A DNA stretch of 64,000 nucleotides from an uncultured bacterium. GTDB lineage: Bacteria > Acidobacteriota > Thermoanaerobaculia > Multivoradales > JAHZIX01. The DNA is taken from NCBI GenBank assembly GCA_965368975.1, contig CBDUPA010000023.1, positions 1 to 64,000 of the forward strand, in the 5' to 3' direction. Shown in pieces: positions 5,585-54,977 of the stretch; the stretch's first letter is position 1; each line of letters starts with the position of its first letter. A model generated the notes under the pieces. The model searched no databases. It had not been told where the DNA came from and worked only from the letters and a program-made list of their open reading frames with translations. The translations under genes were made by a program, and so were the position numbers.

Positions 5585-5616
5585 AGCGAACCTTGGATCT
5601 TGCGGCCGCCTACGGC

Positions 5617-5859: not shown

Positions 5860-6104
5860 GGTTGTACTCTCCTTGCAGGGTTCTGGTCATCTCCAGGCGG
5901 ACCCGAGTAGCTGAGATGTCCGACTTTCGATAGCCAATGTCTATTTTTCCGCAACAGAACAAAGATTGCGCTCTCTGTATCGATTGCAGGGTCTAACTCC
6001 TTCTTTTCAGAAAAAAGATAGGTTTCTGGCCCTTGCTTGTCAACTCGTCTGTGGATGGGGCGCTACAGCCGCGGAATCCAGGTAGGTTGCGTATACTGCC
6101 GGGC

Positions 6105-10183: not shown

Positions 10184-10192
10184 GAAGGCCGA

Positions 10193-11626: not shown

Positions 11627-11681
11627 GGCGGGCGATTGTATCGTGGTGCCCCCTGCAGGGGACAGCAGGTACACTGGCACC

Positions 11682-22806: not shown

Positions 22807-25800
22807 GTGCGCCAGGTGGCTGTTCTGCTCCGTTTCATCGTTCCGCTGCTCCTTCTCGTGCCGGCAGTCGAGCCGGTGCAAGCCTGCAACGCCCGCCAAG
22901 CGGATTCGATCCACGCCCACTCGCACCTCGCACCCGCCAAGCGTGCGTTCACCGTTGGCAAGTCCGAATTCGGACTCACCGAGTGTCGCGGCGGCCAGGC
23001 GGGAATCTACCCATGCCGAGGTGTTGACCTGCTGGCCTTTGTGCCGTTGGGGGAGATGGGGGGGACGACGCAGACCACGGCCAACGACGTCTGGGGCTGG
23101 ACGGATCCGGTGACGGAGAAGGAATACGCGATCGTCGCGCACTCGGACGGCGTCGCCTTCTTGGACATCAGCGACCCGCAGCGTCCGAGGTACCTCGGCA
23201 AGCTGCCGACAAATACCATCGCGACCGGCTGGCGCGACACCAAGGTCTACCGCGATCACGCGTTCGTGGTCGCCGATGCGGCGCAGCAGCACGGGGTGCA
23301 AGTCTTCGACCTGAAGCGCCTGCGCGGCCAGACGAGCGCCAAGACTTGGAATGCCGACACCGTCTACGGTCGTCTCGGTTCGTCGCACAACATCGCGATC
23401 AACGAGACCACCGGCTTCGCCTATGCCGTGGGTTCGGACACCTGCGAGGGTGGCCTGCACATGATTGATATCCGGGCGCCCAAGAATCCGACGTTCGCTG
23501 GTTGTTTCGACGCCGACGGCTACACCCATGATGTCCAGTGCGTGATCTACCGCGGCGCCGACGCGGACTATTTCAACCGAGAAGTCTGCTTCGCCAGCAA
23601 CGAGGACACGTTGACCGTCGTCGACGTGCAGAACAAGAGCGCGCCGCGCATGGTGTCGCGCATCGGCTATGGTGGTTCCGGCTACACGCACCAGGCCTGG
23701 TTGACCGAGAACCACCGCTTCCTGCTGATGGACGACGAGGCCGACGAGCGCCAGCAGGGCCACCGCACCCGCACCTACGTGTGGGACGTGCGTGACCTCG
23801 ACGCACCGAAGCTGATTGGCCGCTATAACGCCTCCACTGGTTCGATCGACCACAACCTCTACATTCGCGGCGACCACGCCTTCCAGGCCAACTACCTGGC
23901 GGGCCTGCGCATTCTCGACCTCGATCGCGTCGGCCAGGGGAAGCTGACCGAGATCGCCTACTTCGATGTCGCTCCCGGCCGCGACAGTACCGGCTTCAGC
24001 GGCAGCTGGAGCGTCTACCCCTTCTTCGAGAGTGGCGTGGTGCTGCTCACCGACATCAGCCAGGGCGTGTTCCTGCTGCGTCCGGACGTGTTACCGGCGC
24101 CGGTCGAGGTTGCCACAGTCAGCGCGCAGCCGGCGCAGGCCAACGGTAGTCCGAACCCCGGCGGTGCATTGCTCGCTGGCCGGCCGATTCGCTTCGAAGT
24201 GCCGTTTACCGGGCCGGGCATCGAGGCGAGCTGGACCTTCGGCGACGACGGCATGGCCTTGCCCGCCGGGCCGTGCGACGCTCAGGAATTCTGCGCTACG
24301 CACATCTTCCCGGAGGCCGGCAGTTACTCGGTGCGCGTCGCGGTGCGCGGCGACAAGGGACAGCTGGCCGAAGCGACGAAGCAGGTGCAGGTGATCGACG
24401 GCGAGCTGAGCCAGCTTTCGGAAGCCGCCTTCCTGCAGAGCGTCATCCTCGGCCCGCGCGGCAATACCGGCACCTTCCGCAGCAACGTCTGGGTCCACAA
24501 CGCCGGCAAGCTGGCCGCTTCCGTCGACTTCATCTTCCTGCCGCGCGGTATCGGCTCCGCCGAGGCGGTGCTCAAGCGTCTGACCATCCTGCCCGACGCC
24601 ACCCTCTTCGTGCCCGACGTGCTGAACTCGGTCTTCGGCATCGACAACGGCCAGGGCTCGATCTTGCTCAACTACCGCGCCGAGCTGATCGGCGGCGATG
24701 CCGAATCGGGGCCGCACCTGGCCGCGATCAGTCGCTCGTTCGTCGAGGCGGCGGAGGTCGAAGGCAGCTTCGGCCAACTGGTGGCCGAGGATCGGGTCTT
24801 CTCCTTCAACGCCGAGTCCAAGACTACCGCCGGCATCCTTGAGGGCGACGGTTTCATCACCACCCTGCTAGCCGCCAACCTCGACGGCTCCCAGGGACTC
24901 GTGACCGTCGAGCTGTTTGACGCTGCTGGTGTCCAGGTGGGCAGTGAACAGAATCTGCCCCTCGGGCCGGGTGTCAGCCGCATCCGCCGGCTTTTGCAGC
25001 TGTTCCCCGAGGTAGTCGACCACCAAGGTCCTTTCACCGCGCGCTTCCGCTCCAACGGCATCGCCTTCGCTGCCTCCGCGACTCTGCTCGAAGCCGAGAG
25101 CGAGGACCAGGTCTTCGTGCCCGCCAGCGAGCCGACTTCCGACTCCGTCCTCTACCTGCCGCGCGTGGTGCGAGCCACGGGCCAGTTCGATGTCCAGCTC
25201 TCCAGCTGGTTGGTGGTGGTCAACGAGAGCACGGACGCCACCCAGCTGATCGGCGAGCTGCTGCTACGCGGTGCCAACAACAGCGATCCCCAGCGCGCCA
25301 CCCGTACGCTGGCGGCGGGCGAGACGCTGGTGTTGCAGGACGTCATTCAAGACCTCTTCGGCCTCGATGTCGCTACCGGTGCCTTGCGCGTCAACTGGAG
25401 CAATGCCGACGGCGTCGCCCCACGGTTGCTCAGCTACGGCTTTGCCCGCACGCCGACTCCGGAGGGTGCTGCGGACGGAGAAGCAGGCGCCCGCTTCGGC
25501 ATGCGCATCGGCACCCTCACCGCGGCAGACGCCATCGCTACCGAGGGCGTCCAGTTCGCTGCTGAGCAGAGCGATCTCTTCCGCTCCAGCTACGGCGCCG
25601 TCAACCTGCACGACCGCGGCACCGTCCTGAGTCTGGAACTGGTCGACGGCGCCGGTGCTGTGCTGCGACAGGCCGAGGTCAATCTCAGGCCCTTCCAACA
25701 CCTGGAGCGCAACTTCGCGGGCATCTTCGACAGTTTGGGCAATGGCAGCAACTGGACGGTGCGCACGACGGTCATCTCCGGCGGTCCAGTGCTCACCTAC

Positions 25801-25869
25801 CTGGCCAACATCAATGCCAGCGGTGACGTGTTCTTCGTGCCGGGGGCGCCACAGCCGGGGGCGCCCTAG
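22807..25869 (+). CDS. Choice-of-anchor B family (LVIVD beta-propeller) surface protein with PKD-like and C-terminal beta domains
   Basis: AGGAGG RBS; signal peptide; ANDVWGWTDP, WRDTKVY, SHNIAIN, YTHDVQC, YTHQAWL, IDHNLY, GSWSVYPFF; WTFGD...HIFPEAGSY PKD. Confidence 0.85.
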   Translation: MRQVAVLLRFIVPLLLLVPAVEPVQACNARQADSIHAHSHLAPAKRAFTVGKSEFGLTECRGGQAGIYPCRGVDLLAFVPLGEMGGTTQTTANDVWGWTDPVTEKEYAIVAHSDGVAFLDISDPQRPRYLGKLPTNTIATGWRDTKVYRDHAFVVADAAQQHGVQVFDLKRLRGQTSAKTWNADTVYGRLGSSHNIAINETTGFAYAVGSDTCEGGLHMIDIRAPKNPTFAGCFDADGYTHDVQCVIYRGADADYFNREVCFASNEDTLTVVDVQNKSAPRMVSRIGYGGSGYTHQAWLTENHRFLLMDDEADERQQGHRTRTYVWDVRDLDAPKLIGRYNASTGSIDHNLYIRGDHAFQANYLAGLRILDLDRVGQGKLTEIAYFDVAPGRDSTGFSGSWSVYPFFESGVVLLTDISQGVFLLRPDVLPAPVEVATVSAQPAQANGSPNPGGALLAGRPIRFEVPFTGPGIEASWTFGDDGMALPAGPCDAQEFCATHIFPEAGSYSVRVAVRGDKGQLAEATKQVQVIDGELSQLSEAAFLQSVILGPRGNTGTFRSNVWVHNAGKLAASVDFIFLPRGIGSAEAVLKRLTILPDATLFVPDVLNSVFGIDNGQGSILLNYRAELIGGDAESGPHLAAISRSFVEAAEVEGSFGQLVAEDRVFSFNAESKTTAGILEGDGFITTLLAANLDGSQGLVTVELFDAAGVQVGSEQNLPLGPGVSRIRRLLQLFPEVVDHQGPFTARFRSNGIAFAASATLLEAESEDQVFVPASEPTSDSVLYLPRVVRATGQFDVQLSSWLVVVNESTDATQLIGELLLRGANNSDPQRATRTLAAGETLVLQDVIQDLFGLDVATGALRVNWSNADGVAPRLLSYGFARTPTPEGAADGEAGARFGMRIGTLTAADAIATEGVQFAAEQSDLFRSSYGAVNLHDRGTVLSLELVDGAGAVLRQAEVNLRPFQHLERNFAGIFDSLGNGSNWTVRTTVISGGPVLTYLANINASGDVFFVPGAPQPGAP

Positions 25870-25933: not shown

Positions 25934-27040
25934 CTACCGGCCGGGGAGCCGTGCTGACCGTCGCCAGACGGTTGCTTCGCGCCGGAGCTGCAACTGAAGC
26001 TGTGTCGAGTCACGATCGACTGTGGAGAACTGGACGTTGCCCATCGCGCTGCCAGCTCCGCGGCCGTCTTGGAACAGGAAGCGCTCTCGCGTCACCGCGA
26101 TCAAGCGCTCTCGGGGCTTTGCCGGCAGCTGAATCCACAGCTCGCCCTGGTGCCTGGAGATCGTGAGGGAGGTTCCGTCCAGTTCGTAGGTTCCTGCCAG
26201 GCGCCGCAACTGCTGCTCCGAGAGCTCGGGTGCTGCGGGTGGTCGGAAGGCACTGTCCGGGATCTCGACGTTGATTTCCAGGGACTCGACGACGTTGATG
26301 TGACGCTCATCGGGCGGAAAGAGGGATTCCGTACGGTGCGGCAGGATCGGCAAGTTCTCCGTCTGGTTGCCGACCCGGCGGTACTCGAACAGGCGATAGC
26401 GGCTGAGCGCCGTGCCTTGAGAGGTTTCGAGGGTGCGGGTGACTTCGCGCGGCAGGCCGGTGTCGGCAGTGAAGTAGACATCGGCCTGGCGTGGCGCGTC
26501 GAGCTGCGGGTCCGGTGTCAGGTAGCGCAGGTGATCGACGACTTCGCCGTCGAGTTCTTCGCGCCCGACGTACGAGACCTGCACACCGCGTTCGCACAGG
26601 GTGAAGTAGAAGGGGTGCGCTTCTTCGTCACGCTTGAAGCCCTCGGCCGGGGGGAGGGCATAGGGAGCGAGAGCGCCATCGTTCTGCGTCCAGGAGGTCG
26701 TGCCGTCGGTGGCGAAGATGAGCTTCTCGGTAAACGGCGGCAGGTTGGCCGGAGTTTCGAGATAGCTCTGGTTCGGGCTCTTCTGTAGGCGCAGGTATGA
26801 CGCTTCGCGGAAGACCTCGCCACGCAAGAGGATGGTCTGGGTGCCGGTTTCCCGACGGCTGTGCTCGGAACGTAGGGCGGCCTCACCGCCTTGCGCCTGA
26901 ACGGCACGCTGAATCACTTGCAGTGCGTGTGCTTCGATGCCGTCGCACGCGGGTTCCCGGATCGGAGCGCGATCTACGGCGGAGGACGGTTGTGAGGAAA
27001 GCAGGAAAAGCAGGACGATGACGACAGGGCGAACAGGCAT
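25934..27040 (-). CDS. Secreted hypothetical protein (LolA-like/zinc-protease-associated domain plus DUF3471-like C-terminus)
   Basis: Signal peptide; VIQRAVQAQGGEAAL, YFTADTGLP, YRRVG..LPH, INVEIPDSAF; LSEQQLRRLAGTY. Confidence 0.6.
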   Translation of the reverse strand: MPVRPVVIVLLFLLSSQPSSAVDRAPIREPACDGIEAHALQVIQRAVQAQGGEAALRSEHSRRETGTQTILLRGEVFREASYLRLQKSPNQSYLETPANLPPFTEKLIFATDGTTSWTQNDGALAPYALPPAEGFKRDEEAHPFYFTLCERGVQVSYVGREELDGEVVDHLRYLTPDPQLDAPRQADVYFTADTGLPREVTRTLETSQGTALSRYRLFEYRRVGNQTENLPILPHRTESLFPPDERHINVVESLEINVEIPDSAFRPPAAPELSEQQLRRLAGTYELDGTSLTISRHQGELWIQLPAKPRERLIAVTRERFLFQDGRGAGSAMGNVQFSTVDRDSTQLQLQLRREATVWRRSARLPGR

Positions 27041-27140
27041 GGATGGGCTCCCTTCGTGGTTGTGGCATGGGGCGATCCGCGGCGAAGGCCGTGGGTTCAG
27101 GAGCCAGTACGCGGCGTCGTACGTTCGGTTGGCGGTGGCG

Positions 27141-27171
27141 GGATAAGTGGGACTGAGGGTGGGGCGAGCGG
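27141..27171 (-). promoter_or_regulatory. Putative LytTR-binding direct repeat
   Basis: Minus-strand ccgctcgccc and ccacttatcc at 21-bp period, between the LytTR gene and the secreted-protein gene. Confidence 0.45.
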
Positions 27172-27193
27172 TGGTGCGACAGTTTCCGGATCG

Positions 27194-28141
27194 CTAGCCG
27201 AGGCTGTCGAGATCGCTCAGGCTGGAGCGGTAGCGGCGGCTGACGCGGAGCTCCGTGCCGTCCTGAAGCCGTAGATGAGCGTCACCATGGCCGACCGCTC
27301 GCAGCTCCCTCACGCGTGCCGTGTTGACCAGGGTGGAGCGATGGATACGCCGGAAGCCGTGGACCTGCAAGCGGTGGTGGAGGTCTTTCAGCGGTTCGCG
27401 CAGCAGGTAGCTCGAAGGCCCTACGTGTAGGCGGCTGTAGTTGCCGTCGGCCGCGACCCAATCGACCTCCGCGGCATCGACCAGACGCGTCCGGTCGCCG
27501 ACGCGGACGCTCAGGCGTGGCGGCGTGTCCACTGGCTGTCGCAGCAAACCCTCGAGTCGCAGCTCGAGTTTGAGTGCCTGTAGCTGGGCTTCGCTGAGCT
27601 GAGCTTGGAGCGCGGCGGTCTCCAAGCGCCTGAGTTGCTGGCGGCGTAGCAGGTCGTAGGCTAGACCGGCGGCGCCGATGGCTGCGTAGCCGAGCAGGAA
27701 GAGCACGAAGCCGACGCTCATGTAGTGCAGCCAGCCGAGCCACAGGCTGCGTACCGACGCCTGGCTCAGCGTGCCTGCATGCCACATGTGGAGCAGTGCC
27801 AGGTAGGTGGAGTAGAGACAAGCCCAGCCGGCCGCCGTGCTGCTGTGCAGGGCGAACTCGCCGATATGCCTCGACCACTTCGCGCCTTGTTCTCCCGCGT
27901 CTTCACGCTGCCAGCGGCGGTGTAAGATCCAGTGCAGGAGGGCCGCAGAGGCGGCGGCCCAGGGCCACCACAGCAGGAGAGCGTCGGTCAACTCCCGCCA
28001 TATGGAGGCGGGCTTCTGTCCGAACACCAGGGAGACATACCCCTGTGCCGCGGTGGCGAGAACCAGCAGAAGCCAGGCGGCCCAGAAGACGAGTCGGCCC
28101 GGGGGCGCCGGAGTGTCGGTGCCTCGAAGGCGCGACAGCAT
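27194..28141 (-). CDS. Membrane-tethered LytTR regulator (LytS-type TM sensor fused directly to LytTR)
   Basis: About 4 TM helices, then the LQAQLSEAQLQALK coiled coil, then LytTR (VDWVAADGNYSRLH, FRRIHRSTLVN, LRVSRRY). ATG 28141 overlaps the upstream TGA. Confidence 0.82.
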   Translation of the reverse strand: MLSRLRGTDTPAPPGRLVFWAAWLLLVLATAAQGYVSLVFGQKPASIWRELTDALLLWWPWAAASAALLHWILHRRWQREDAGEQGAKWSRHIGEFALHSSTAAGWACLYSTYLALLHMWHAGTLSQASVRSLWLGWLHYMSVGFVLFLLGYAAIGAAGLAYDLLRRQQLRRLETAALQAQLSEAQLQALKLELRLEGLLRQPVDTPPRLSVRVGDRTRLVDAAEVDWVAADGNYSRLHVGPSSYLLREPLKDLHHRLQVHGFRRIHRSTLVNTARVRELRAVGHGDAHLRLQDGTELRVSRRYRSSLSDLDSLG

Positions 28142-29007
28142 CAGTTCGCGGACGAAGGCTGGCGCACTTCGTAGCGCAGCACCTGCTCGCCCATGGACAC
28201 CTGCAGCGTCCACGACCCTGCCGGCAAGATTTGCGCCGGCACGGTGAGCGTGAAGTGACCATCGGTGTTGCGCAGCAGGCCGTCACTACGCCAGGCTGGT
28301 TCGCCTCCGGCATCGAGGATCTCGACGCTGGCACCGGAGGTCTGTGACGTGCCCAGAGCGCCGTCGAGCAGGACCAGCGTCAGCAACGGGCTGTTGGGCG
28401 GAATCTCGACGTCGTTGACGTAGGCAGCTTCGGCTGGGGGGCGAGAACCGCGGGAGACGGCGGTCGGGGTGCTGGCGAGCAGGTTGACGACCGGCGTGTT
28501 GAGCAAGGGGCCGAGGTCGTCGGTGGTGATCTGCGGAGCGAGCAGGCTGTAGATCAAGGCGACCGCGAGCACGACGGCGATCAGCGAGGCCGCCAGGGCC
28601 CAACGACGCCACGATTGGGCGCTGCGGCTCACACCTGGCTCCTGTGGACGACGGAAGGGCAAGGGAGCTGCATCCTCGGCTGTAGGCTCACAAACCAGTT
28701 CGAGTTCCTGCTGGCACTCGGCACACGCTTCGAGGTGATTGCGTACCAGCGTCAAGCGCGGGCTGGCCTCCAATTGCCCGAGGGCGAAGTCGACCAGGTC
28801 TTCCGCCGGTACGTGACCAGCATGCAGATCGCGGGCGCGGCGCGTGGCCCGCAATTCCTCGCGGCACGCATCACAGGTGCGCAAGTGTTGCTCCACCAGC
28901 CGCGCTTCGTGCTTGTCGAGGGTGCCATTCAACCACCAGGGCAGCAATTCGCTCACCGTCCGGCACTCGAGGCCCGAGGTCCCGCTCGACGCGGCCTGTT
29001 CCGACAT
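28141..29007 (-). CDS. Anti-sigma factor with two zf-HC2 domains, one TM helix and an extracytoplasmic domain
   Basis: HLRTCDAC and HLEACAEC; WALAASLIAVVLAVALIY TM helix. Confidence 0.88.
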   Translation of the reverse strand: MSEQAASSGTSGLECRTVSELLPWWLNGTLDKHEARLVEQHLRTCDACREELRATRRARDLHAGHVPAEDLVDFALGQLEASPRLTLVRNHLEACAECQQELELVCEPTAEDAAPLPFRRPQEPGVSRSAQSWRRWALAASLIAVVLAVALIYSLLAPQITTDDLGPLLNTPVVNLLASTPTAVSRGSRPPAEAAYVNDVEIPPNSPLLTLVLLDGALGTSQTSGASVEILDAGGEPAWRSDGLLRNTDGHFTLTVPAQILPAGSWTLQVSMGEQVLRYEVRQPSSAN

Positions 29008-29011
29008 GAGC

Positions 29012-29614
29012 CTACTTTACAGCTTGACGGCGTTCTGGGGAACCCTCGTCGTGTGCTGGCTGTTTCGGCTCACCGTGGTGCGTCTGCCACCAAGCCAGGG
29101 CGCGTCGACGGCAACGCAGCACGCGCACGCGCAACGTGCCGGTCGCGATGCCCAGCTCGTCGCTCATCTCGCGGTAACTCTTGCCGGCCAGAATCAGCGT
29201 CCACAGCCGGCGGCAGTCGGCGGGCATCTGGTGCATCAGGTGGTGTAGCCGGGTCACGGCTTGGGCCTCTTCGATACGCCGCAGCACGGAGGGTCCGCGC
29301 GCCCGTGGCTCGGGCAGGTTGTCGTCCTCTGCGCTGACTTCGCGCGAGCGTTTCTGGTCACGCAGCAAGTTGAGACACGTACACTGTGTGACTCGCCACA
29401 GGTAGGTGCGCAGCCGCGAGTCGCCGCGGAAGGATCCGGTGCGCAGCAGGCTGGTGACTTCGAGCAGTAGCTCCTGCTCGACATCCTCCCAGGGCATGCG
29501 CAGCGACACCCGGAAGCGCCTGCCTGCCTGCCCCAACCACTGCCGAATCTGGGCCACTGCGTTGGCGTCGCCGTTCAGGAAGTCCGCGATGAGCTGCTGA
29601 TCGTCTCCGTGCAT
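29012..29614 (-). CDS. ECF RNA polymerase sigma factor
   Basis: EDVEQE, FRGDSRLRTYLWRV (region 2); KSYREMSDELGIATGTLRVRVLRCR (region 4). Confidence 0.9.
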   Translation of the reverse strand: MHGDDQQLIADFLNGDANAVAQIRQWLGQAGRRFRVSLRMPWEDVEQELLLEVTSLLRTGSFRGDSRLRTYLWRVTQCTCLNLLRDQKRSREVSAEDDNLPEPRARGPSVLRRIEEAQAVTRLHHLMHQMPADCRRLWTLILAGKSYREMSDELGIATGTLRVRVLRCRRRALAWWQTHHGEPKQPAHDEGSPERRQAVK

Positions 29615-29758
29615 GATCCCCGGTGTCAGGAGCTGTGCTCGAGTGTCTTGGTGCTTGTCACTAGTGAAGTTGTCATTAGTGAAATAGACATTCGTACACG
29701 GGGAATTCCCGCGATAGCTCTGGTGTGAGCACTCCAAGGGTGCTTCACGAATAGGCAG

Positions 29759-29789
29759 TGTAACGCTTCCGGGCGCTTCGGTGACTAAC
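29759..29789 (+). promoter_or_regulatory. Putative ECF-type promoter upstream of the defensin-like gene
   Basis: TGTAAC -35 (AAC motif) followed about 17 nt later by TGACTAA. Confidence 0.45.
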
Positions 29790-29865
29790 CCTCTACGAGG
29801 TTCAGCCCGTTCAGCGTGAGCGGCATCCTCAGGTCACTTTCTACGAACCAAGGAGGTTCAACACC

Positions 29866-30198
29866 ATGAAGAACACTTTCCTCAGTCTGCTCGCCGTCCT
29901 GTGTCTGGCCGCGCTGATCTTTGCGCCGCTGACCTTCGCCAACGAAGCCCCTGCCGACGTGCCGGTTGCCAACCAGACGCTGGATCTCGCGGATATCGTC
30001 AACCCCCAGTCGAGCGTCGAGACTACGGGCGCCGAGATGTCCACGGACACCCCGAGTCCCGACTTCATGCAGGGTCCCTATCCTGGGCACGCTGCCTGCT
30101 TCGACTTCCACGACGAGTGCAGCATCTACTGTGCCCTCCAAGGCTATCTGTACTACAGCGCCAACTGCAACAATATGACCTGCAGCTGCTACAGCTGA
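29866..30198 (+). CDS. Secreted prepropeptide with CSαβ defensin-like six-Cys C-terminal domain
   Basis: AAGGAGG RBS; signal peptide (..LTFA|N); acidic pro-region; C-x6-C-x3-C-x11-C-x4-C-x-C. Confidence 0.78.
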   Translation: MKNTFLSLLAVLCLAALIFAPLTFANEAPADVPVANQTLDLADIVNPQSSVETTGAEMSTDTPSPDFMQGPYPGHAACFDFHDECSIYCALQGYLYYSANCNNMTCSCYS

Positions 30199-30281
30199 TC
30201 GTCATGTCTGTCGGATGAACGTCCTGCCCGTAGGATGTTCGATAGGGGGGTCTCCTTGAGGGGGGAGGCTCTTCTTTGCAT

Positions 30282-33200
30282 CTAGCGCCAATCGCCGTTC
30301 AGCTGAAAGCCTGCCCAGTGGAACGGGTGTGCTGCTCCCGGCAGAGCCAGCAGGTCCATCTTGGCGAGTCGCAGAGATTCGGCCTTGTTCTTTCCTTGCC
30401 TGAGGTAGTGATAGAAGCGTTGCATCAGCTGGCTGGTCGAGGCATCGTCGACCTGCCACTGCGACGCGAGCACCGAGCGCGCACCCGCGAACTGGAAAGC
30501 TCGAGTCAAGCCGATGAGGCCCTCGCCGCCGGCTTCCGTGCCGAGTGCGGTGTCGCACGCCGAGAGGGTGACCAGATCGGCGTCGAGCCGCAGCTCTTCG
30601 AAGATTTCCCATACTTGCAGCAGGCCGTTTTCCCGCTCTTCTCGTCCTGGCTCCGGCAAGTTCTCATTCTTGGGTAAAGCCAGCGCCAGCGCTGACTCGA
30701 AAGGGGAGCGGTCGTTGAGTAGGCCGTGGCAGGCGAAGTGCACCAAGTCGGCCTGCCCGGCCAGGGCCTTGACGCGCTCTTCTGTCGCGGCGTCGCCGAG
30801 GAACCCCAGGGATTCGGGGAAGAGACGCTGCAGGGCACGCACTTCGGCGCGGCTTCCCGGTAGCTGAGGCAAGCTGCCTGACGCAGGTGTACCGGCCACG
30901 GCTTCACGGGTGTACTCGGGGTCGCCGAAAGCGACCAGGCGTTGTGCGGAGTCCGCCCGTCGACGATCCTTCAGCTGGGCGAGGACCGTCACCGAGGCGG
31001 CAAAGTGCAGTGACTTGCTCTGGGCCAGGTAGCGTGGTGGTCCGGGGACGGACGGATCGGCGAGGACGCCGAACGGCAGCCGGTGCAACGGACCATCGGC
31101 GACAAGCAGCAGGCGCTCGGCGCGGTGGATCTGGTCTGTCGCCGGCGCCAGCAGCAGCGCACTCAGACGCCGGCTGTGCGCCAGCACCGGTTCGACGCGC
31201 GCGTCCGTGGTGCCGCGTGCCAGCAGCCCGCGCAGGCGTTCGACCTCGGCGGCCAGTGGCTCGTGGCTCGTGGTTAGCTCGAACATGGCGAAGTCCGAGC
31301 GCCCCGGTCCAACCGCGAACAGGAAACTCGTCGCCTCGCCGATGACGTACGACAGCAGCAAGGTGCCCGGGTCGAGCGCGGCCCGTGCAGCTGTCAGGTC
31401 GAGGGGGACGGCGTGGTCGAGGTCGGCGAGCTTCGGGGCTTCCGTCCGGATGCGCGATGCCAGCTCGTGCTGCTCTTGGCGCACTCGGATCAGTCGCTGT
31501 CGCAGCTCTTCGCCGCGCTCTTGCGAGACCGGGGTCGTGGTCAGTTCGGCGTACAGGCGATCGTACTCGGCGTTGACGAGCCGCCGCTCACGTTGCAGCG
31601 CTGCAGGTAGCTCCTGGTCGAAGCTCAGGTCCCGGCGCGCCATCAGGCGCAGCAGTCCGCGGGCTCGGTAGCGTTCCGAGATCTCGAAGGCTGTTGCTTG
31701 CCACGCTGGTGGCCTTGCCTGCTGCAGCAACTCGATCATCTCGTGGTAGTAGGCTGAAAACTCAACGGCGAAGAGGCTGTGGTTCTCGGCGGATCCGCCA
31801 GCGCGCAGCTGCTGGGCTTCCAGTGCTCGCAGGGCTCTCTGGTGCAAGGACAGGGCGTGCGTCAGCTGGCCTTGCTGCCGGTAGAGACGCGCCAGCTGCA
31901 GCGCCGCCTCGGCTTCTTCCAAGGTGCCGGCAGGACGAAGGAAGCTGGGGCCCAAGGATTCCTCTAGCAGAGCCACGGCTGTCGCGGCGTCGGAGTGGCT
32001 CAAGACGGTCGCCAACAAGTGCAGGCTGCGCGCTACGGACAGGCTGTTCGGGTCGATCGCCCGTTGGATCTCCAGTGCCTGACGCTGGTAGCGCTCGGCT
32101 GCGTCGAGTTCCCCCTGGCGCAGGGCGAGCTGGCCCAGATTGTGGAGACCAAGGCTATACGGCAGGCTGTCGGGCAGCCGTTTTTCCAGAAGAGCCTGTG
32201 CGCGTTCCTGGTAGGCGCGAGCTTGCAGCAGCTGACCGCGTCGTGCGGCGACGTCGGAGAGATTGCTCAGGTTCAGGCTGACGTTTGGGCTGCCGGGGGA
32301 GAGCTGGCGGTTGATCTCCAGCGCCTGCAGGTGGTAGGCCTCCGCAGCTTCCAGGTCGGAGCGTACAAAGGCGATCGAGCCGAGCAGACTCAGGCAGCCC
32401 GCGGCCCCGAGGCTCTGTGGTGCTTCCCGTTCGAGGCTGCGGCGCACCAAGGTCTCGGCACCTTCCAGGTCACCGCGAAAATACGAGACTGTCCCCAGGT
32501 TGTACAAGACTCGAGTTCTTTCCGGGCTGCGCGGATCGGTCTGCTCTGTGATGTCCAGAGCACGCTGGAGGTATGTCTGGGCGGTCACCAGGTCTCCGCG
32601 AGTCTGCTGCAGGAGTCCCAGATTCATCAGCGCTCGCACCACCGACATGCTGTTGGGCGTCCAGTGCTCGGCCAGGTCGAGACTGCGCTTGAAGTACATC
32701 TCGCTTTGCTCGAGGTCGCCGAGCCGGCGGTGGACGATGCCCAGGTTGTTGAGCACGGTCGCAGTGGACTGTCCTTCCGGGGCCAGGTCGAGACAGATTT
32801 CGAGCGCCTGGTTGAGCAGGATGCCCGCTTCGTGCACCTTGCCGTGGCGCCCGGTGGCGACGCCCAGGAAGTTGAGCACGCGCGCAACGCCCAGACTCTG
32901 TGGCTCCTGCTGCTGGCGCAGATCCAGCGCGGCATGGTAGTACTTGAGAGCCTTGCCCAGCTGGTCGAAACGCTCGGCGATGCGTCCCCGGGTCTCGACG
33001 ACATGGATCTGTACCAGAGTGTCCCCAGACTGCACGGCGGCCCGCGCAGCCGCGTCGAGCGGCTCCTCGGCGGCCGCCCAGCCGGTATCCGCCGGTATCT
33101 GCCGCGCTGTCAGTACGTAGAGCCAGGCCGCCGTGCCGTGGTCTCCCGCCGTCTGCAGCTGCTGCGCCAACCGCGTCCAGGCATCGTTGACCGGGCCCCG

Positions 33201-33722
33201 CTGCACATCAGCTTGCCGGCTCCAGCCTTGCTGGTAGAGCGCCCGGTCGTCCGGGTGCAAGAAGGCTCGCACCGTGAAGTCCCAGGCTTCGGGACCGACG
33301 GTCCAGACTCTGGGCAAACCACCGCGCTGTCCGTGTAGGACGACCGGCCCCAGCGGTCCGTGTTCGAGTTCGACCTCGTCGAAGTGAAACGGCGTGAGCA
33401 GCGGTCCGGACGCCGCCGCTGGCAGGCGCGGAGAGGTCGGTAGCCGTTGCCAGGAGAGTAGTTCGTCTCCCGGTCGCAGCCCTGCCGCGGCGGCGGCAGA
33501 TTCCGGGTTGCAGGACTCGACCACGATGCGCTGCAGCTGTGCGCTGGGTTCGCGGTTGGCAGCCGGCGGCGGGTTGGAAGTTGCTGGTGCAGCGGCCGCG
33601 GAGGTCAGCCACAGCAGCAAGATCCACGCCCAGCTCAGCAGGGCCGTGGTCGGTGCACGGGTGGCGTCAGTGCGGTGGGTCTGCGGGGTTCCTCGTCTCT
33701 GTCGACGTTCGATAGCGGTCAT
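30282..33722 (-). CDS. Exported PDZ-TPR-CHAT (caspase-like, clan CD) protease
   Basis: N-terminal hydrophobic segment; PDZ-like AAAAAGLRPGDELL; many ~42-aa TPRs; CHAT motifs DGPLHRLPF, HFACHG (His), LVTLSACDT (Cys), HPFHWAGF. Confidence 0.92.
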   Translation of the reverse strand: MTAIERRQRRGTPQTHRTDATRAPTTALLSWAWILLLWLTSAAAAPATSNPPPAANREPSAQLQRIVVESCNPESAAAAAGLRPGDELLSWQRLPTSPRLPAAASGPLLTPFHFDEVELEHGPLGPVVLHGQRGGLPRVWTVGPEAWDFTVRAFLHPDDRALYQQGWSRQADVQRGPVNDAWTRLAQQLQTAGDHGTAAWLYVLTARQIPADTGWAAAEEPLDAAARAAVQSGDTLVQIHVVETRGRIAERFDQLGKALKYYHAALDLRQQQEPQSLGVARVLNFLGVATGRHGKVHEAGILLNQALEICLDLAPEGQSTATVLNNLGIVHRRLGDLEQSEMYFKRSLDLAEHWTPNSMSVVRALMNLGLLQQTRGDLVTAQTYLQRALDITEQTDPRSPERTRVLYNLGTVSYFRGDLEGAETLVRRSLEREAPQSLGAAGCLSLLGSIAFVRSDLEAAEAYHLQALEINRQLSPGSPNVSLNLSNLSDVAARRGQLLQARAYQERAQALLEKRLPDSLPYSLGLHNLGQLALRQGELDAAERYQRQALEIQRAIDPNSLSVARSLHLLATVLSHSDAATAVALLEESLGPSFLRPAGTLEEAEAALQLARLYRQQGQLTHALSLHQRALRALEAQQLRAGGSAENHSLFAVEFSAYYHEMIELLQQARPPAWQATAFEISERYRARGLLRLMARRDLSFDQELPAALQRERRLVNAEYDRLYAELTTTPVSQERGEELRQRLIRVRQEQHELASRIRTEAPKLADLDHAVPLDLTAARAALDPGTLLLSYVIGEATSFLFAVGPGRSDFAMFELTTSHEPLAAEVERLRGLLARGTTDARVEPVLAHSRRLSALLLAPATDQIHRAERLLLVADGPLHRLPFGVLADPSVPGPPRYLAQSKSLHFAASVTVLAQLKDRRRADSAQRLVAFGDPEYTREAVAGTPASGSLPQLPGSRAEVRALQRLFPESLGFLGDAATEERVKALAGQADLVHFACHGLLNDRSPFESALALALPKNENLPEPGREERENGLLQVWEIFEELRLDADLVTLSACDTALGTEAGGEGLIGLTRAFQFAGARSVLASQWQVDDASTSQLMQRFYHYLRQGKNKAESLRLAKMDLLALPGAAHPFHWAGFQLNGDWR

Positions 33723-33730
33723 GGCGCATG

Positions 33731-36700
33731 CTACAGCAGCTCGTTGACGTCCGCCTCTGACATCTCTTCGATCTCTGTGAGCAGGTCATCCAGGTCGTCC
33801 ACTCCGACGACTTCGGCTTGCTCACGCGCCACGCGCACGCTCAGGCCGGCGACGGTGGGGGCTTCGAAGACGGCGCGCAGGGGCACTTCGACGCCGATCT
33901 GATCGCGGATGGCGGTGACCACTCGGCCGGCGAGCAGGCTGTGGCCGCCGAGGTCGAAGAAGTCATCACGCACGCCGACGCGTTCGACGCCGAGCAAGCC
34001 TTGCCAGATGTCGCACAGGGTGTGCTCGAGGTGGCTGCGCGGTGCCAGGTAGGCAGCGGTGGTGCTGCCCGGCCAGCCACGGTCGCGCAGCGAGCCGCGG
34101 TCCAGTTTGCCGTTGGGCAGATGGGGGAGGCTACGCTCAGCGACAAGGGCGGCGGGTACCTGGTGGCTGGATAGGGCGGCTTCGAGCTGCTGGCGGATAG
34201 CGTCGAGGTCCAGATCCTCGGACGGGTCACCTTCCGGGACGACACCTTCCGGGACGATATAGGCCGCCAGGCGGGTGTCGCCCTCGACCTGGATTGGTAC
34301 TACGGCGGCCTCGCTGATCTGTGGCAGGCCGGCGAGTACGGTTTCGGTCTCGCCGGGTTCGACGCGCACCCCGCGCACTTTGACCTGCTGGTCGAGACGG
34401 CCGATGAACTCGAGTTCGCCGAGCGGATTCCAACGCACCAGGTCGCCGGTGCGGTAGAGGCGCCGGCCACCCGTACCCGTACCAGAGCCAGTCCCGGAGG
34501 CGGGATCGGGGACGAAGCGCTCGGCGGTGAGGGCAGGGCGGCCGAGGTAGCCGCGCGCCAGTCCGTCGCCACCGGCACACAACTCGCCGGCACAACCGAT
34601 CGGTACTGGTTGGCCGTGGCGGTCGAGCAGAGAGACGTGGGTGTGCGGCAGGGGCCGGCCGATCGGTACGGTGCGTGCTCCGGCCGGGACGCGACGCACG
34701 CGGCCGGCGGTGGTGTAGGTGGTGTTCTCGGTCGGGCCGTAGACGTGCAGCAGGCGCTCGGGGCCGCCGGGAGATTCGCTGAGCACGCGGCGGATGCGTG
34801 CCGGGTCGACCAGCTCGGCGCCGTACTGCACCTGAGTGATGGCGGCGAGGGCATCTGGAGCGAGCTCCTGCATCTGGTAGAGCACCGAGGTGAGGACGAA
34901 GAGGTTGCTCACGCCTTGCTGGCGCAGCGCGCGCGCCAGGCGTGCCGGGTCGCGTTGCAGCCGGCGGCGAATGCCGACGATGGTACCGCCAGTGAGCAGC
35001 GGCGCCCACAGCTCCCAGGTGGCGGCGTCGAAGGCAATGTTGGCGACCAGGGCGACGCGTTCGCCGGCTGCGGGTAGCGTTTGTGGAACGCCGTGTAGTC
35101 CTTCACTGGGTAGCCCTCCACCGGGTAACCCCTCACTGGATAATAGGCCACCGCCGAGCACCAGGCGGTGGACGGCGCGGTGGGGGATCGCGGCGCCTTT
35201 GGGGCGGCCAGTGGAGCCGGAGGTGTAGATGACGTAGGCTAGGCTGTCGGCCCGGGCTTGCTCCGAGATTCTCTCGGTCTTAGCGGGAGAATCCGTGAAT
35301 TGTGCGGCGACAATGTTTAGGGCCGAAGATTCGTCGGTAGACGGGGCGAATTTCTGCTCTTCTTCCGCCATGTAGCGTGACGCGGGCAGTTCCAGGGCGT
35401 CGAGATGCCTTGGGTGGCCGAGGACGCAGACGGCGCCGCTGTCTTCGAGCAGGAAGCGTTGGCGCTCGACGGGATCGTCGGGGTCGAGCGGCAGGTAGGC
35501 GCCGCCGGTGTGCAACACGGCGAGGACGGCGATGATCAGCTCGGGGGAGCGGCTGAAGCACAGACCGACGCGCACATCCGGGCCCAGCGGTAGCTCGTGG
35601 GTAGCGGCTTGGCGCCGCAGTCGGGCGGCCTGGTGGCGCGCCCGGGCGTCGAGCTGGAGGTAGCTGAGATGAAGTCTGCCATAGACCACGGCGACGGAGT
35701 CCGGCTGCCGATGCACGATAGCTTCGAAGGCGGGCAGCAGGGTCAGGTCGTCGTGTCTGCTCGTGGACTGCCTTCTCGCGGACTGTCTTCTCGCGGACTG
35801 TAGCGTCGCTGAGGAGCACTCGGCGACGCTGCTCCATTCGTGGAGCAGCTGGTGCCGCTCACTGGCGTGCAGCCACTCCAGGTGTTGCACCGGCGTGTAC
35901 GGTTGTTCGAGTCCGGCGCTGAGCAGGGCCTGGTAGTGGCGCATCCAGCGCGCGACGGTGGTAGCGTCGAACAGGTCGGCATCGTAGGAGGCAGCGCCGC
36001 TGAAGCCGCCTCCGGGTCGGCTCTGGAAGTGGACTTCCAGGTCGAAGTGGGTGGCGTGGAAGTCGAGCGGCAGCGGTTCGAGCTGCAGAGCTTCCGTCGC
36101 CTCGCCGCCGAAGTCGACGCGCGGCTGCGGCAGGTCTTGCAGCGCGAAGCTGACCTGCAGTAGCGGCGTGCGCGACAGGTCGCGCTGCGGCGAAAGTTCT
36201 TCGACCAACTTCTCGAACGGCAGGTCCTGGTGCTCGTAGGCGCCCAGCGCGGTGTCGCGGATCTGCTCCACCAGCTGCTCGAAGGAGAGTTCCCGGCGCC
36301 CGCCCTCGTCGTCTTCGGTGCGCAGTCGACAGCGCAGCGCCAAGGTGTTGACGAAGAAACCGATCAGCCGTTCCAGCTCGGCCAGCGGCCGGCCGGCTAT
36401 CGGCGAACCGATGACCACGTCGTCCCGTCCGTCGACGGCACCCGCGAGGCGGCCGGCGGTGGCGGCGAAGCCGGCGAGCAGTGCCATGAAGGGTGTCAGG
36501 CCTCGGCGCTGGCTGAAGGCGTGCAGGTGGTGACTGAGGTCGTCGGGCAGGTGGACGGCCAGGCCTCGGCCGCGGAAGCGCTGCAGACTGCGGCGCGGGC
36601 GGTCGGTGGGGAGTTCGAGCGGCGGCGGCAGGCTGGCGGCTGGGCTGGTACCGTCTGGATTGGTACCGTCTGGATTGGTACCGTCTGGATTGGTACCGTC

Positions 36701-39700
36701 TGGATTGGTACCGTTTGGATTGGTCAGAGTCTGGCGCCACCACTGCATCTGACGTTCCAGTTCGTTGCCAGCCAGCCACGCGCGTTGCCATTGGGAGTAG
36801 TCGACATACTGCACGGGGAGGGGAGCGAGGGGCTCACCGCGATACGCCTGGGCCCAATCCGCCAGCAGCACACCCATCGACCAGCCGTCCGAGACGATGT
36901 GGTGCTGACTCACCAGCAGTGCGTGCTCGTCCGCCGCCAGGCGCACGAGCACGGCACGCAGCAGGGGTGCAGTGGTGAGGTCGAAGGGGCGGCGAACCCA
37001 GGCGGTCGCCAGGCGTACCGCTTCTACCGTGCGCCGCGTGGGGCACAGCCGACTCAGATCCAGACGCCTCCTGGGCTGCGGCCGCGCGGGCTCGACGATC
37101 TGCTCGGGGTCGCGGTCGCGGCTACTGCTGAAGCGGGTGCGCAGGCTGCCGTGGCGGGCAACCACGGTGTCGAGGGCCGCCTCCAGGCGCGCCGGATCGA
37201 GCGCGCCGCGCAGGCGCCAGGCGGCGGGTAAGTTGTAGGTGTCGTTGTCAGGGTCGAGGCGGTCGAGGAACCACAGGCGTTGCTGGGCGAAGGAGACCGG
37301 TGCGCGGAATACGCTGTCTGCGGGCCGCGGCTGCGTGCCGATCGGTGGTCTCCGTTCGCTCGACGCACGTCGCAGGCGCTCGGCCAGATCGGCGACGGTG
37401 GGGGCCTCGAAGACCGTGCGCATGGGCAGTCGGCGGCCGAGCCGGCGGTCGATGTGAGCGACCAGGCGGGTGGCGAGCAGGCTGTGACCGCCTAGCTCGA
37501 AGAAGTTGTCGCGCACGCTGACGCGCGGCACGTCGAGCAGCTCGACGAAGAGCGCCGCCAGCTGGGCTTCGAGGCTGGTGCGGGGAGCGGTGAACGGACG
37601 CTCGCCGCCGCCCAACTCTTCCAGTGCGGCGCGTAGCTCAGGTGCCGCGCGCCGCGCCAGCGCCCGGCGGTCGAGCTTGCCGTTGGCGGTCAGCGGCAGG
37701 GCGGTGGCGGGCAGAAAAACCGTGGGGATCATGTAGTCGGGGAGCCGCTGGCCGAGGAAGAGGCGCAGCTCGGCGGTTTCCGGCGCGATGCCGGTAGTGA
37801 CGAAGACGGCGGCCAGCCGGGCGTCCCCCTGGCTCGGCCCGCCTGCGCGCTGCCGTTCGGCGACAACGGCGGCGGCGCTCACCGCCGGATGCTCAGTGAG
37901 TACGGCCTCGATCTCTTCCAATTCGACGCGGAAGCCACGCACCTTCACCTGGGCGTCGGCGCGGCCGAGGATCTCCAGCCGGCCGTCGTGCAGATGGCGC
38001 ACCAGGTCGCCGGTGTGGAACAGGCGCGCGCCGGGAGAACCGGCGGCTGGACCAGCGGGCGCGTGACCGTCGGGACGGAAGCGGCCGGCAGTGAGCGCGG
38101 GCTGGTGCAGGTAGCCTCGGCCGACGCCGCTGCCGCCCAGGCACAGCTCCCCGGCGCAACCGAGGGAGACGGGATGGCCGCGGCGGTCGAGCAGCAGCGC
38201 GCGCACGCCCGGCAACGGCCGTCCGATGTCGGGGTCGGTACCGCGCGTGTGGCTGCCCTCGGCGCGACGCGGCACGGCACCGCTGGTGGTCAGGATAGTG
38301 GTCTCGCTGGGACCGTAGTCGTTGATCAGGCGCAGGTGGGGTAGCCGGCGGCTGTACTCGGCGGCGTCGCGGTGCAGGCGGTCGCCCCCCGGATACAGCT
38401 GGCGCAGGCAGGCGAGCGTGGGTAGGGGACCGGGGGGCTCTCGTGGTACGTCCCGTAGCAGCGCTTCGAGCATCGGGGTTGGTCCGTAGATGCCGCTGCA
38501 GCCGAGGCGTTCTAGCCAGGCACGCAGCAGTCGCGGGTCGAGGCGCGCACTCGACGGTGGCACGCAGACGGTGGCGCCGCTGGTCAGGGGGGCGCCGAGG
38601 CCGAGCAGGGAAGCGTCGAAGCCGGGGCCGTAGGCTTGGGCGATTCGCTGGCTTGGGCACACGGTCGGGCCGCTGCTGGGTGGCGTCTCGTGCCGCCGCA
38701 CCGCCATGCGGGCGGCATAGCTGCCGCACGAGATGCCGTTGCCCTTGGGTCGGCCACTGGAGCCCGAGGTGTAGACGATGTAGGCGAGGTGCTGGTGCGG
38801 TCGTCGTTGTGGTGCTGATAGGGAGGACGAGACGTTAGCTGCTCGGCGGGGCAGGTCGTGGCGTTGCCAGATCTGCTCCTTCCTCACGACCAGTCCTGCA
38901 ACCAGCTCGGCTTGCAGCCCCTGGTTCTTGGAGGCACCTTGGCCTGGTTCGGCGTCGACCAGGACCGCCACCGGTCGTGACTCTCGCAGCATGTCGAGCA
39001 GCCGTTGGACCGGCACGCTAGGGTCGAGCGGCAGGAAAGGGACGCCGGCATAGAGCGCGGTGACCTGGGTCAGCACCTGCTCGGCACAGCCCGGCACGCA
39101 CAGGGCGACTGGCTGCTCCGGCTTGGCAGATTCGCATGGGATCTCGGTGGCCAGCCGTAGGGCGAGCCGGTGCAGGCCGCCATAGCTCAGGTGCAACCGC
39201 TGGTCGTGGACGGCGATACGGTCCGGCACGCGCGTGCCGTGGTCGGCGATGCGCTCGGCGATACCCGGTGCGTCCGCTTCGCTGGTGCCTGTCCAATCCT
39301 TGGCGCCCGTCCCATCCGCCGCGAGGTCACCCTCGGCGGCCGGCGTGGTCGTGACCCATTCGTGCAACACTTGCTGGCGTTCGCCGATCTTCAGCATCGA
39401 CGCTTCGCCGATGGGCAGATCTGGATCGGCGGCGAAGCCTTCGAGCAGCGAAGCGAGAGCGTACAGCCAGCGGTGGATGGTGGTGTCGTCGAACAGGTCG
39501 GTATTGAACTCCATCTGCGGCACCGACAGCGAGCGCCGATCTGACGCGTCGTGGCCGGTGGAGACGTCGGTGAACAGGATCAGGTCGACCTGCGTGACAT
39601 GGTTCTGCACGAAGTTGCTGTCCACCGTCACCTCGCCCAACTGCAGCGGTGGCATTTCGATGTTCTGCAAGCTGAACACCGCCTGGTAGACCGGCGAGTA

Positions 39701-40947: not shown

Positions 40948-40951
<4 letters not shown>
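33731..40951 (-). CDS. NRPS, 2 modules (C-A-T-C-A-T), no TE
   Basis: HHIISDG and HHIVSDG; YTSGSSG and YTSGSTG; YGPSE and YGPTE; two LGGHSLL; GTG start overlaps the upstream stop. Confidence 0.95.
36646..36724. repeat. 15-bp tandem repeat x5 (TNPDG) inside an NRPS C domain
   Basis: tggtaccgtctggat x5. Confidence 0.95.
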
Positions 40952-54810
<13,859 letters not shown>

Positions 54811-54977
54811 TGGAAAGCTCCCCCTAGCACACGCCCGAAACGAACGACTCACCGAAGGCGGGTGTTGGAATGAACAAGCGAGACTTCGAAGTTACGCGGA
54901 ACGAAAGGGTTCCGACTCATCAGATACCGAGCAGTCTATCTTGTTGTCCGTGCTGGGAGGAGAAGCGATAAGGCGGG

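Follow-up and report, generated by a model that had tools for sequence, protein, structure and literature searches.

Introduction

Regulated intramembrane proteolysis of single-pass anti-sigma factors is well described for RseA, acting with DegS and RseP, and for RsiW, acting with PrsW and RasP. The release of sigma factors by proteases of the TPR-CHAT type has two known examples, i.e. the cytoplasmic CRISPR-associated Craspase and the fused anti-sigma factor DdvA, for which cleavage is proposed. In Craspase the cytoplasmic, Cas7-11-bound Csx29 cleaves Csx30, resulting in the release of an RpoE-like sigma factor. Here we analysed a 64-kb stretch of DNA (contig CBDUPA010000023.1; overall GC content 66%), referred to as the window, which encodes a TPR-CHAT protein with a predicted export signal close to a sigma factor of the extracytoplasmic function (ECF) class and a membrane anti-sigma factor of the zinc-binding anti-sigma (ZAS) type.

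The effector of type III-E CRISPR systems, Craspase, is described as Cas7-11 in complex with the TPR-CHAT protein Csx29 (PMC10028731). DdvA of Myxococcus xanthus is presented as an anti-sigma factor fusing a ZAS domain, a transmembrane helix and a periplasmic TPR-CHAT part, and its authors propose self-cleavage by the CHAT domain followed by RseP (PMC11506125). For the sigma factor group ECF54 a conserved context with genes for CHAT, subtilase and carboxypeptidase proteins is reported and proteolytic control is proposed, the group being described in that account as having no anti-sigma factor (PMC8999054). In the open-access full-text literature we found no account of a separate exported TPR-CHAT protein acting with a ZAS anti-sigma factor, a prior mention being possible in the ECF classification paper or its supplements, and no account of the CHASE2-kinase/CHAT cassette described below. 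We propose, tentatively and with slightly less than even confidence, that the window encodes a split, two-polypeptide device similar to DdvA, with the CHAT protein serving in the periplasm as partner, and probably as site-1 protease, of the anti-sigma factor.

Results

A predicted exported TPR-CHAT protein encoded near an ECF sigma factor and its anti-sigma factor

Read along the minus strand, i.e. with falling coordinates, the genes in question are two non-ribosomal peptide synthetase (NRPS) genes, the CHAT gene, the ECF sigma factor gene, the anti-sigma factor gene and a LytTR gene, with a peptide gene on the plus strand between CHAT and ECF (Table 1). The CHAT and anti-sigma genes are separate, share a strand and have ~1.3 kb between them, and the stop of the ECF gene is followed after a 4-nt gap by the start of the anti-sigma gene. 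All these frames show the coding signature of this GC-rich window, with the GC content at third codon positions (GC3) far exceeding that at second positions (GC2).

The CHAT domain is matched by Pfam over nearly the full length of the profile (PF12770, residues 850-1144, E 9e-69; 232.5 bits at a gathering threshold of 24, covering profile positions 4-289 of 289) and is accompanied by six TPR stretches (TPR_12, E 3e-53). The protein consists of a signal segment (~27-50), a beta domain seen in the AlphaFold2 model (66-153), the TPR array (157-640), a helical linker (645-780) and the CHAT domain (787-1146), the model reaching a predicted local distance difference test value (pLDDT) of 81 and a predicted template modelling score (pTM) of 0.74. 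A reading made earlier from the letters of the window alone, to which we refer as the sequence-only reading, had described an exported PDZ-TPR-CHAT protease with intact His and Cys; CHAT, TPR, the dyad and the export segment stand, while the PDZ domain stays below threshold (PF17820, 18.5 versus 27 bits). A PDZ family is present in about 20 of the best 120 CHAT homologues listed, and we regard the N-terminal PDZ domain of the window protein as probable rather than certain and call it PDZ-like. In an alignment of 36 homologues His999 (codon 30726-30728) is invariant and Cys1056 (codon 30555-30557) is conserved in at least 90%, and in the alignment of the CHAT domain H213 and C270 are invariant in 26 sequences. 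Both H999 and C1056 align to residues of DdvA, i.e. H862 and the Cys of LAAC, and a role as caspase-like protease is predicted. The N-terminal hydrophobic segment and an AAA-AP site are consistent with export, predicting an extracytoplasmic location of the TPR-CHAT part.

Searching solved structures with the model using Foldseek returned human separase (E 7.9e-15), DdvA (8rw5, 8rot; E 1.6e-14) and Csx29 (E ~1e-13; template modelling score to target ~0.53) as top matches. DdvA, second in this list, shows 17% identity, the highest among the CHAT-protein matches, and is also the best match in the Protein Data Bank (PDB) for the profile of the CHAT domain, with the catalytic His and Cys aligned. 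Among solved bacterial relatives DdvA is the closest.

The ECF sigma factor is identified by TIGR02937 (58.5 bits versus a cut-off of 42.9); it comprises regions 2 and 4 only, with Sigma70_r2 and r4_2 stretches just under the Pfam cut-offs, and its likely start was placed by alignment (Table 1). The anti-sigma factor carries a zf-HC2 domain (PF13490, residues 15-49, E 1e-12, 48 bits) and a second ZAS-like stretch (residues 65-106) matched by TIGR02451, with C15/H41/C45/C48 and H65/H91/C95/C98 as putative zinc ligands. In its structure model helices (15-106) precede a transmembrane segment (128-156), a juxtamembrane stretch of low confidence or disorder (157-173) and a beta-sandwich, Ig-like ectodomain (173-282), which the predicted topology puts outside the membrane; Foldseek returned generic Ig-like matches only (best E 2.7e-4). 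The ECF sigma factor and the double zf-HC2 anti-sigma factor with an extracytoplasmic domain, both named in the sequence-only reading, are borne out by these matches and, for the membrane segment and ectodomain, by the model. Predicting the complex of CHAT protein residues 280-1146 and anti-sigma residues 158-288, supplied as alignments, gave a score of 0.00 (mark 0.32), which speaks neither for nor against a contact, the PDZ-like domain and the first TPRs lying outside the construct.

The sequence-only reading had further called the module CRISPR-independent, which agrees with our searches of the module and of the scanned ORFs. Among the five proteins of the module there is no cas, CBASS (cyclic oligonucleotide-based anti-phage signalling) or other PADLOC system protein, a generic TPR model being the sole PADLOC match, and no Cas-type or CBASS families occur among the other Pfam-scanned open reading frames (ORFs) of the window, the 4634-aa ORF being unscanned.

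Recurrence of the sigma factor pair beside CHAT genes

The CHAT family is large: of 8000 candidates, 924 proteins reach E<=0.001. Identity to the window protein is 34-53% for the best 120 homologues, and their named sources are Acidobacteriota, Thermoanaerobaculia, one Deltaproteobacteria metagenome-assembled genome (MAG) and one unclassified bacterium. Scanning one genome per species with the 36-sequence CHAT alignment as query, we obtained 72 loci (given below with L numbers); those titled with a taxon are all Acidobacteriota MAGs, and one is titled "uncultured bacterium". For gene calling we applied a GC3-GC2 rule, which recovers the genes of the window. Of the 279 ORFs at most two genes away from CHAT, 270 were scanned with Pfam, nine ORFs of more than 1000 aa being excluded. 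No Cas family was found among the 270 scanned neighbours of these loci, which were fetched by CHAT likeness. A signal or lipoprotein hydrophobic segment is present in 52 of the 72 family members, and several TPR-CHAT paralogues occur per MAG.

In 12 of the 72 loci (L003, L004, L009, L037, L050, L051, L055, L057, L061, L065, L066 and L069) an ECF and/or a ZAS anti-sigma gene lies within three called genes of CHAT, and these cases occupy at least six positions on a tree built by FastTree from 72 CHAT ORFs of at least 900 aa. The closest correspondence is found in L003, L004 and L009, in which an anti-sigma gene of the window type stands directly beside CHAT (phmmer E 7e-26 to 1e-40) and, next to it, an ECF orthologue in L003 (E 1e-43) and L004 (E 5e-51), the L009 contig terminating within the anti-sigma gene. 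All three loci have the sigma pair convergent with CHAT, i.e. oriented opposite to the window. Their CHAT proteins and that of the window fall into one starred clade (97) of nine rows, in which ECF/anti-sigma genes are present in four loci and absent in two, and contigs are too short in two (L001, L005). A head-to-tail order of ECF, anti-sigma and CHAT on one strand is found in L037, L057, L061 and L066. Using an ECF profile built from the loci, we found 11 ECF genes among 389 genes at a distance of up to three genes from CHAT versus 3 among 438 beyond (odds ratio 4.2, Fisher p 0.027).

The orthologous anti-sigma gene of L003 (6539-7456, minus strand) no longer encodes either Cys of the first zinc motif, where ESSAGR replaces CxxC, and has kept the second motif, suggesting that the second ZAS may be the essential one. 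L003 additionally contains two tandem CHAT genes upstream of the sigma pair (2-6292), and in L004 (2786-11786) the anti-sigma/ECF pair stands between two different CHAT genes (2786-6100 and 8811-11786).

A second, mutually exclusive cassette and a proposed shared outer domain

A CHASE2 Ser/Thr kinase gene (~680 aa) is present in 31 of the 72 loci, and 30 of these 31 genes lie within three genes of CHAT (p 1e-9). A secreted protein of ~300 aa, which we term mid, is encoded in 37 loci, 30 of them having the CHASE2 kinase as well. The order within this cassette is CHASE2 kinase, mid, PDZ-TPR-CHAT, e.g. in L021 (7110-13264), L002 (7062-13045) and L068 (6365-9342). All 12 ECF-linked loci are free of both mid and CHASE2 (hypergeometric P 5e-5, with no correction for relatedness); the two neighbour cassettes are mutually exclusive and never co-occur in the 72 loci.

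The mid protein continues in frame into the CHAT N-terminus in 17 of 38 matching ORFs (at least 900 aa), mid and PDZ-TPR-CHAT often forming one ORF of 1300-1700 aa, and the fusion is also found in an NCBI-annotated protein of 1352 aa (hhalign E 3e-66, residues 5-267). Pfam matches of mid are sub-threshold only, to Ig-like families in six of nine members (best E 0.002) and to FecR in two of nine (best E 0.011). We distinguish the window-type anti-sigma factors (window, L003, L004, L009, L037, L065, L066) from a short type (L050, L051, L057, L061, L069). In profile-profile comparison the short type matches mid (93%, E 2.8e-7, 83 columns), its ectodomain being aligned to the Ig-like part of mid, and the window-type ectodomain matches that of the short type (77%, E 2e-5, 63 columns). 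The link comes from profile-profile comparison only, a plain hmmsearch of mid versus the anti-sigma factors giving no match at E<=1. Mid, the module fused to CHAT in the kinase loci, resembles the ectodomain which in the sigma loci comes with the anti-sigma factor. From this distant similarity and the logic of the fusions we infer a shared outer domain, for which contact with the CHAT protein is predicted.

Further genes recur in these neighbourhoods. Small RTX (HemolysinCabind) proteins, GAF sigma-54 activators and S8 subtilases are found repeatedly near the CHAT family and its cassette. A gene with a GWxTD domain lies between the short-type anti-sigma gene and CHAT in L051 (8536-9678) and L069 (8533-9804), and in L050 (8609-9187 region) one directly follows CHAT (13344-14558); it may be a further conserved member of the short-type sub-cassette. 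L030 (5607-9796) and L035 (5710-9669; nSTAND1 match in L035), which have neither cassette, encode a TIR-SIR2 protein and a WD40 NTPase directly upstream of CHAT in what looks like an anti-phage defence neighbourhood.

Surrounding genes and local additions in the window

The features of the window are collected in Table 1. The stop codon of the preceding NRPS gene is 8 nt ahead of the CHAT ATG, and by this short distance the CHAT gene is probably co-transcribed with the NRPS genes, making it probably the last gene of an NRPS transcription unit in the genome of the window only. The gene of the LytTR protein begins within the anti-sigma stop codon (TGATG). Both this gene, coupled to the anti-sigma gene, and the NRPS stop in front of CHAT had been omitted from the sequence-only reading.

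Table 1. Features of the module and its flanking genes in the 64-kb window
Feature	Position	Strand	Remarks
Second very large NRPS gene	40948-54852	-	4634 aa; outside the Pfam scan
NRPS gene, C-A-T modules	33731-40951	-	2406 aa; Pfam Condensation, AMP-binding, PP-binding
PDZ-like/TPR/CHAT caspase-like protein, predicted exported	30282-33722	-	1146 aa; Pfam, alignment, AlphaFold2, Foldseek
Secreted six-Cys peptide gene (signal peptide predicted)	29866-30198	+	110 aa; ORF, Shine-Dalgarno sequence, GC3
TGTAAC hexamer, putative ECF -35 element of the sequence-only reading	29759-29764	+	sequence match
15-bp sequence in two tandem copies, a 10-bp palindrome in either; candidate operator	29655-29684	.	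repeat search
ECF sigma factor	29012-29614	-	200 aa from ATG 29614; longest ORF up to 29737; TIGR02937
Single-pass anti-sigma factor, two ZAS motifs	28141-29007	-	288 aa; Pfam, TIGRFAM, model
Membrane protein, C-terminal LytTR	27194-28141	-	315 aa from ATG 28141; PF04397

The ECF operon and the peptide gene diverge from a common control region of 250 nt. As stated in the sequence-only reading, the latter has the appearance of a gene for a secreted Cys-rich peptide: a Shine-Dalgarno sequence (AAGGAGG) lies 8 nt 5' of the ATG, GC3 is 0.82, and the product has a predicted signal peptide, an acidic pro-region and six Cys within the last 34 residues, spaced C-x6-C-x3-C-x11-C-x4-C-x-C. Cysteine-stabilised alpha-beta (CS-alpha-beta) domains are defined by six Cys with CxxxC and CxC spacing, and the peptide shows this six-Cys pattern of CS-alpha-beta defensins with a mature domain of ~35 aa. 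Bacterial defensin-like peptides of this class include the actifensins and AdDLP (PMC6989792, PMC5116183); the window peptide has the CxxxC ... CxC pattern behind a signal and pro-region, and its sequence homology to any other protein is not detectable. The peptide has no Pfam or NCBIfam match, and a search of 1.84 billion representative proteins returned only the peptide itself. In the Atlas, scorpion short-toxin families come nearest to it as feature clusters (score 0.75, to be taken as a lead only).

None of the 72 loci contains a relative of the peptide or of the LytTR protein, and a small secreted Cys-rich ORF up to 4 kb from an ECF gene exists in one of 13 loci, which is the window itself, and in none of the 12 other ECF-linked loci. 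The neighbourhood expected from the sequence-only reading is conserved in its CHAT, anti-sigma and ECF genes (L003, L004 and L009; 12 of 72 loci), and the secreted peptide is not part of what is conserved. The search results make the six-Cys peptide gene an orphan specific to the genome of the window and the defensin-like peptide a separate curiosity, which we do not tie to the CHAT/sigma module.

The LytTR domain (PF04397, E 2e-19, 70.1 bits versus 22.6) spans residues 240-333 of the long ORF, in a protein with hydrophobic segments which is encoded by the third gene of the sigma operon and is translationally coupled to the anti-sigma factor. The GC-rich intergenic region that separates the peptide gene from the ECF start codon contains an AT-rich patch formed by two tandem 15-bp copies, 13/15 identical and each containing a 10-bp palindrome (TCACTAGTGA / TCATTAGTGA). 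The palindrome pattern has 2 matches in the window versus 0.07 expected, and elsewhere in the 72 loci there is a single match with one mismatch (L061 at 2939). The repeats are a candidate operator, perhaps for the LytTR protein. LytTR regulators often govern peptide genes via repeats, and by this habit the LytTR protein with the repeats is at least as good a candidate for controlling the peptide gene as the ECF sigma factor. Peptide, LytTR protein and palindromes look like local add-ons outside the conserved core.

The TGTAAC hexamer had been taken for an ECF-type promoter element pointing at the peptide gene. It is present, but TGTAAC occurs twice in the window versus 5.3 times expected from shuffled sequences, and neither a -10 partner nor conservation could be demonstrated for this copy, so that a role as ECF promoter is not supported. 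Nor did we find support for an ECF promoter common to the window, L003 and L004: comparing the regions upstream of the three ECF genes by eye showed a candidate GGAATT-N15-TCTAT on the minus strand in the window, along with scattered TACGA(A)T words, but no consistent spacing, and we make no promoter claim. A scan of 27000-34200 for sigma-70 promoters gave 0 sites. An ECF-driven peptide branch is left unsupported by the absence of a homologue, the absence of a counterpart near the other ECF genes and the single, unenriched hexamer.

Shortly beyond the sigma operon, on its downstream side, the window encodes an exported protein of 368 aa whose DUF3471 match is sub-threshold (25934-27040, minus strand) and a choice-of-anchor B family protein of 1020 aa that contains a PKD domain (22807-25869, plus strand; TIGR04312, E 1e-141). 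A patch of low GC content (60001-62000; 0.54 versus ~0.66-0.70 elsewhere in the window) contains the ORFs 60656-61342 and 61343-61705, with a GC3 of 0.49-0.54 and no Pfam match, and is possibly foreign DNA.

Discussion

Our data suggest a conserved core consisting of an exported PDZ-like/TPR/CHAT protein, an ECF sigma factor and a ZAS anti-sigma factor with an Ig-like ectodomain. This is consistent with a model according to which the CHAT protein would recognise either the Ig-like ectodomain of the anti-sigma factor or its disordered juxtamembrane stretch. An envelope signal would enter via the TPR or the PDZ-like part, and the CHAT domain would remove or release the ectodomain as the site-1 step. 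Intramembrane proteolysis would then free the ECF sigma factor, which would transcribe its own operon and further targets. Physical contact, cleavage, direction of signalling and regulon are all parts of this model that we infer.

We favour the split DdvA-like arrangement because the adjacency of the genes is orthologous and recurrent, the two cassettes are complementary, mid is found fused to CHAT, the ectodomains are of a shared type, the compartments match and DdvA provides a precedent. Several observations weigh against it. The CHAT gene of the window comes after the NRPS genes and stands outside the sigma operon, the oppositely oriented peptide gene separating it from ECF. All 72 loci were gathered from the CHAT side, the enrichment of ECF genes near CHAT is modest among loci that are phylogenetically related, and L008 and L031 have paralogous CHAT genes of the window's own clade without a sigma pair. 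The majority neighbour of the family is the kinase/mid cassette (37/72) and not a sigma factor, and 23 of the 72 loci, some of them on short contigs, have neither cassette. The direct match of the window-type ectodomain to mid is weak (11%, E 0.0026, 55 columns), in register with the same region. The sequence match of the CHAT-domain profile to DdvA in the PDB is marginal (E 0.024), the cleavage of DdvA is itself still put forward as a proposal (PMC11506125), and a longer, fused relative of the anti-sigma factor was not found in our search, which is weak evidence. The N-terminus of the anti-sigma factor is a generic ZAS, its profile matching RsiW (E 0.003), RslA (E 0.01), ChrR (E 0.13) and the N-terminus of DdvA (E 0.7) among solved structures. 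We hold our confidence just under the even mark because CHAT follows the NRPS genes, the statistics are modest and phylogenetically dependent, and ascertainment was from the CHAT side only.

Two explanations, both of which we consider unlikely, give the CHAT protein no part in controlling the anti-sigma factor. According to the first, it is an output, i.e. an exported protease or scaffold which is a member of the ECF regulon or co-regulated with it and acts on other envelope or extracellular proteins. ECF regulons usually take in neighbouring genes, the four loci with head-to-tail order on one strand look like co-transcribed members of such a regulon, and the subtilases and small RTX proteins recurring near the family hint at an extracellular proteolytic role. 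An output would, however, leave unexplained why mid and CHASE2 are excluded from all 12 ECF-linked loci and why mid, with an Ig-like part resembling the anti-sigma ectodomains, is fused to CHAT, and the CHAT gene lies outside the sigma operon in the window as well as in L003, L004 and L009. According to the second, which we judge improbable to a similar degree, there is no coupling: the CHAT protein belongs to the NRPS unit, serving export, self-protection or regulation for the NRPS product, and the sigma operon is an unrelated neighbour in a genome rich in ECF genes. The 8 nt between the NRPS stop and the CHAT start leave no room for a separate promoter, the interrupting peptide gene fits an accidental neighbourhood, and so do the many TPR-CHAT paralogues of Acidobacteriota and the two clade members without a sigma pair; yet L003, L004 and L009 have no NRPS beside CHAT and still carry the orthologous sigma-pair genes, in inverted arrangement, and ECF genes cluster near CHAT across the 72 loci. 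The full cascade of the sequence-only reading, in which ligand-activated CHAT cuts the anti-sigma factor, the ECF sigma factor transcribes the peptide gene from TGTAAC and CHAT matures the propeptide, is very unlikely: the peptide gene does share its control region with the ECF operon, looks genuine and encodes a pro-region needing removal, and its product and the CHAT protein are both predicted to be exported, but it is without homologue or counterpart in the other ECF-linked loci, the hexamer is neither enriched nor paired with a demonstrated -10 element, and the unique palindrome pair together with the window-specific LytTR protein could equally control it.

The split arrangement may be one instance of a more general scheme, which we put forward as doubtful: the exported PDZ-TPR-CHAT proteins of Acidobacteriota might serve transmembrane signal transducers in general as a periplasmic module for input or processing, docking on and cutting a shared Ig-like ectodomain, which would be supplied either by a ZAS anti-sigma factor or by a secreted FecR/Ig-like protein, often fused to the protease, that acts with a CHASE2 kinase, and thereby gating both sigma factor and kinase signalling from the outer side of the cytoplasmic compartment, with DdvA as a fused offshoot. 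To our knowledge, very few signalling pathways of Acidobacteriota have been characterised. Two exclusive cassettes, one with ECF/anti-sigma and the other with a CHASE2 kinase and a fusable secreted protein, point to an envelope signalling module, widespread in this phylum and so far unstudied. As protease and anti-sigma factor could be expressed separately, the split form would offer a simpler system for testing a caspase-fold enzyme as site-1 protease.

Comparison with known systems

The analogy drawn in the sequence-only reading was to Csx29 and Csx30. It holds for the TPR-CHAT fold and for the principle that a caspase-like cut sets a sigma factor free, and it is looser than that to DdvA: Csx29 is cytoplasmic and sits on an RNA-guided effector, whereas the CHAT protein of the window carries an export signal, no Cas7-11 or Csx30-like gene is present among the annotated ORFs of the window, and the presumed substrate is a membrane ZAS anti-sigma factor in place of Csx30. 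With ECF54 the window shares the published genomic association of ECF and CHAT genes, and it differs from that group by its ZAS anti-sigma factor.

Like the RseA and RsiW systems, the window combines a single-pass anti-sigma factor of ZAS type, which has an ectodomain, with a separate periplasmic protease, as predicted here, having a PDZ-like domain, and among solved anti-sigma factors RsiW gives the best match to its anti-sigma profile (E 0.003). Those systems use a serine or metallo-protease, whereas the candidate site-1 enzyme of the window would be a Cys protease of the caspase fold with a long TPR array.

The closest correspondence is with DdvA. In both cases a ZAS anti-sigma factor, an ECF sigma factor and an extracytoplasmic TPR-CHAT part with a His-Cys dyad are encoded together, the TPR-CHAT part is of the separase/craspase fold (for the window as judged from the model; Foldseek E 1e-13 to 1e-15), the cognate ECF gene adjoins the anti-sigma gene and a site-1-like role is proposed for CHAT. 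DdvA, from Myxococcota, is one polypeptide, whereas in the window, of Acidobacteriota-like lineage, the TPR-CHAT part is a separate protein, predicted to be exported, with an N-terminal PDZ-like domain, and the anti-sigma factor has two ZAS motifs and a small Ig-like ectodomain of its own; a CBASS/CRISPR regulon is not found nearby, as judged by PADLOC for the module and by the Pfam-scanned ORFs. By this comparison, what is new in the window would be a two-gene version of the TPR-CHAT anti-sigma arrangement known from DdvA.

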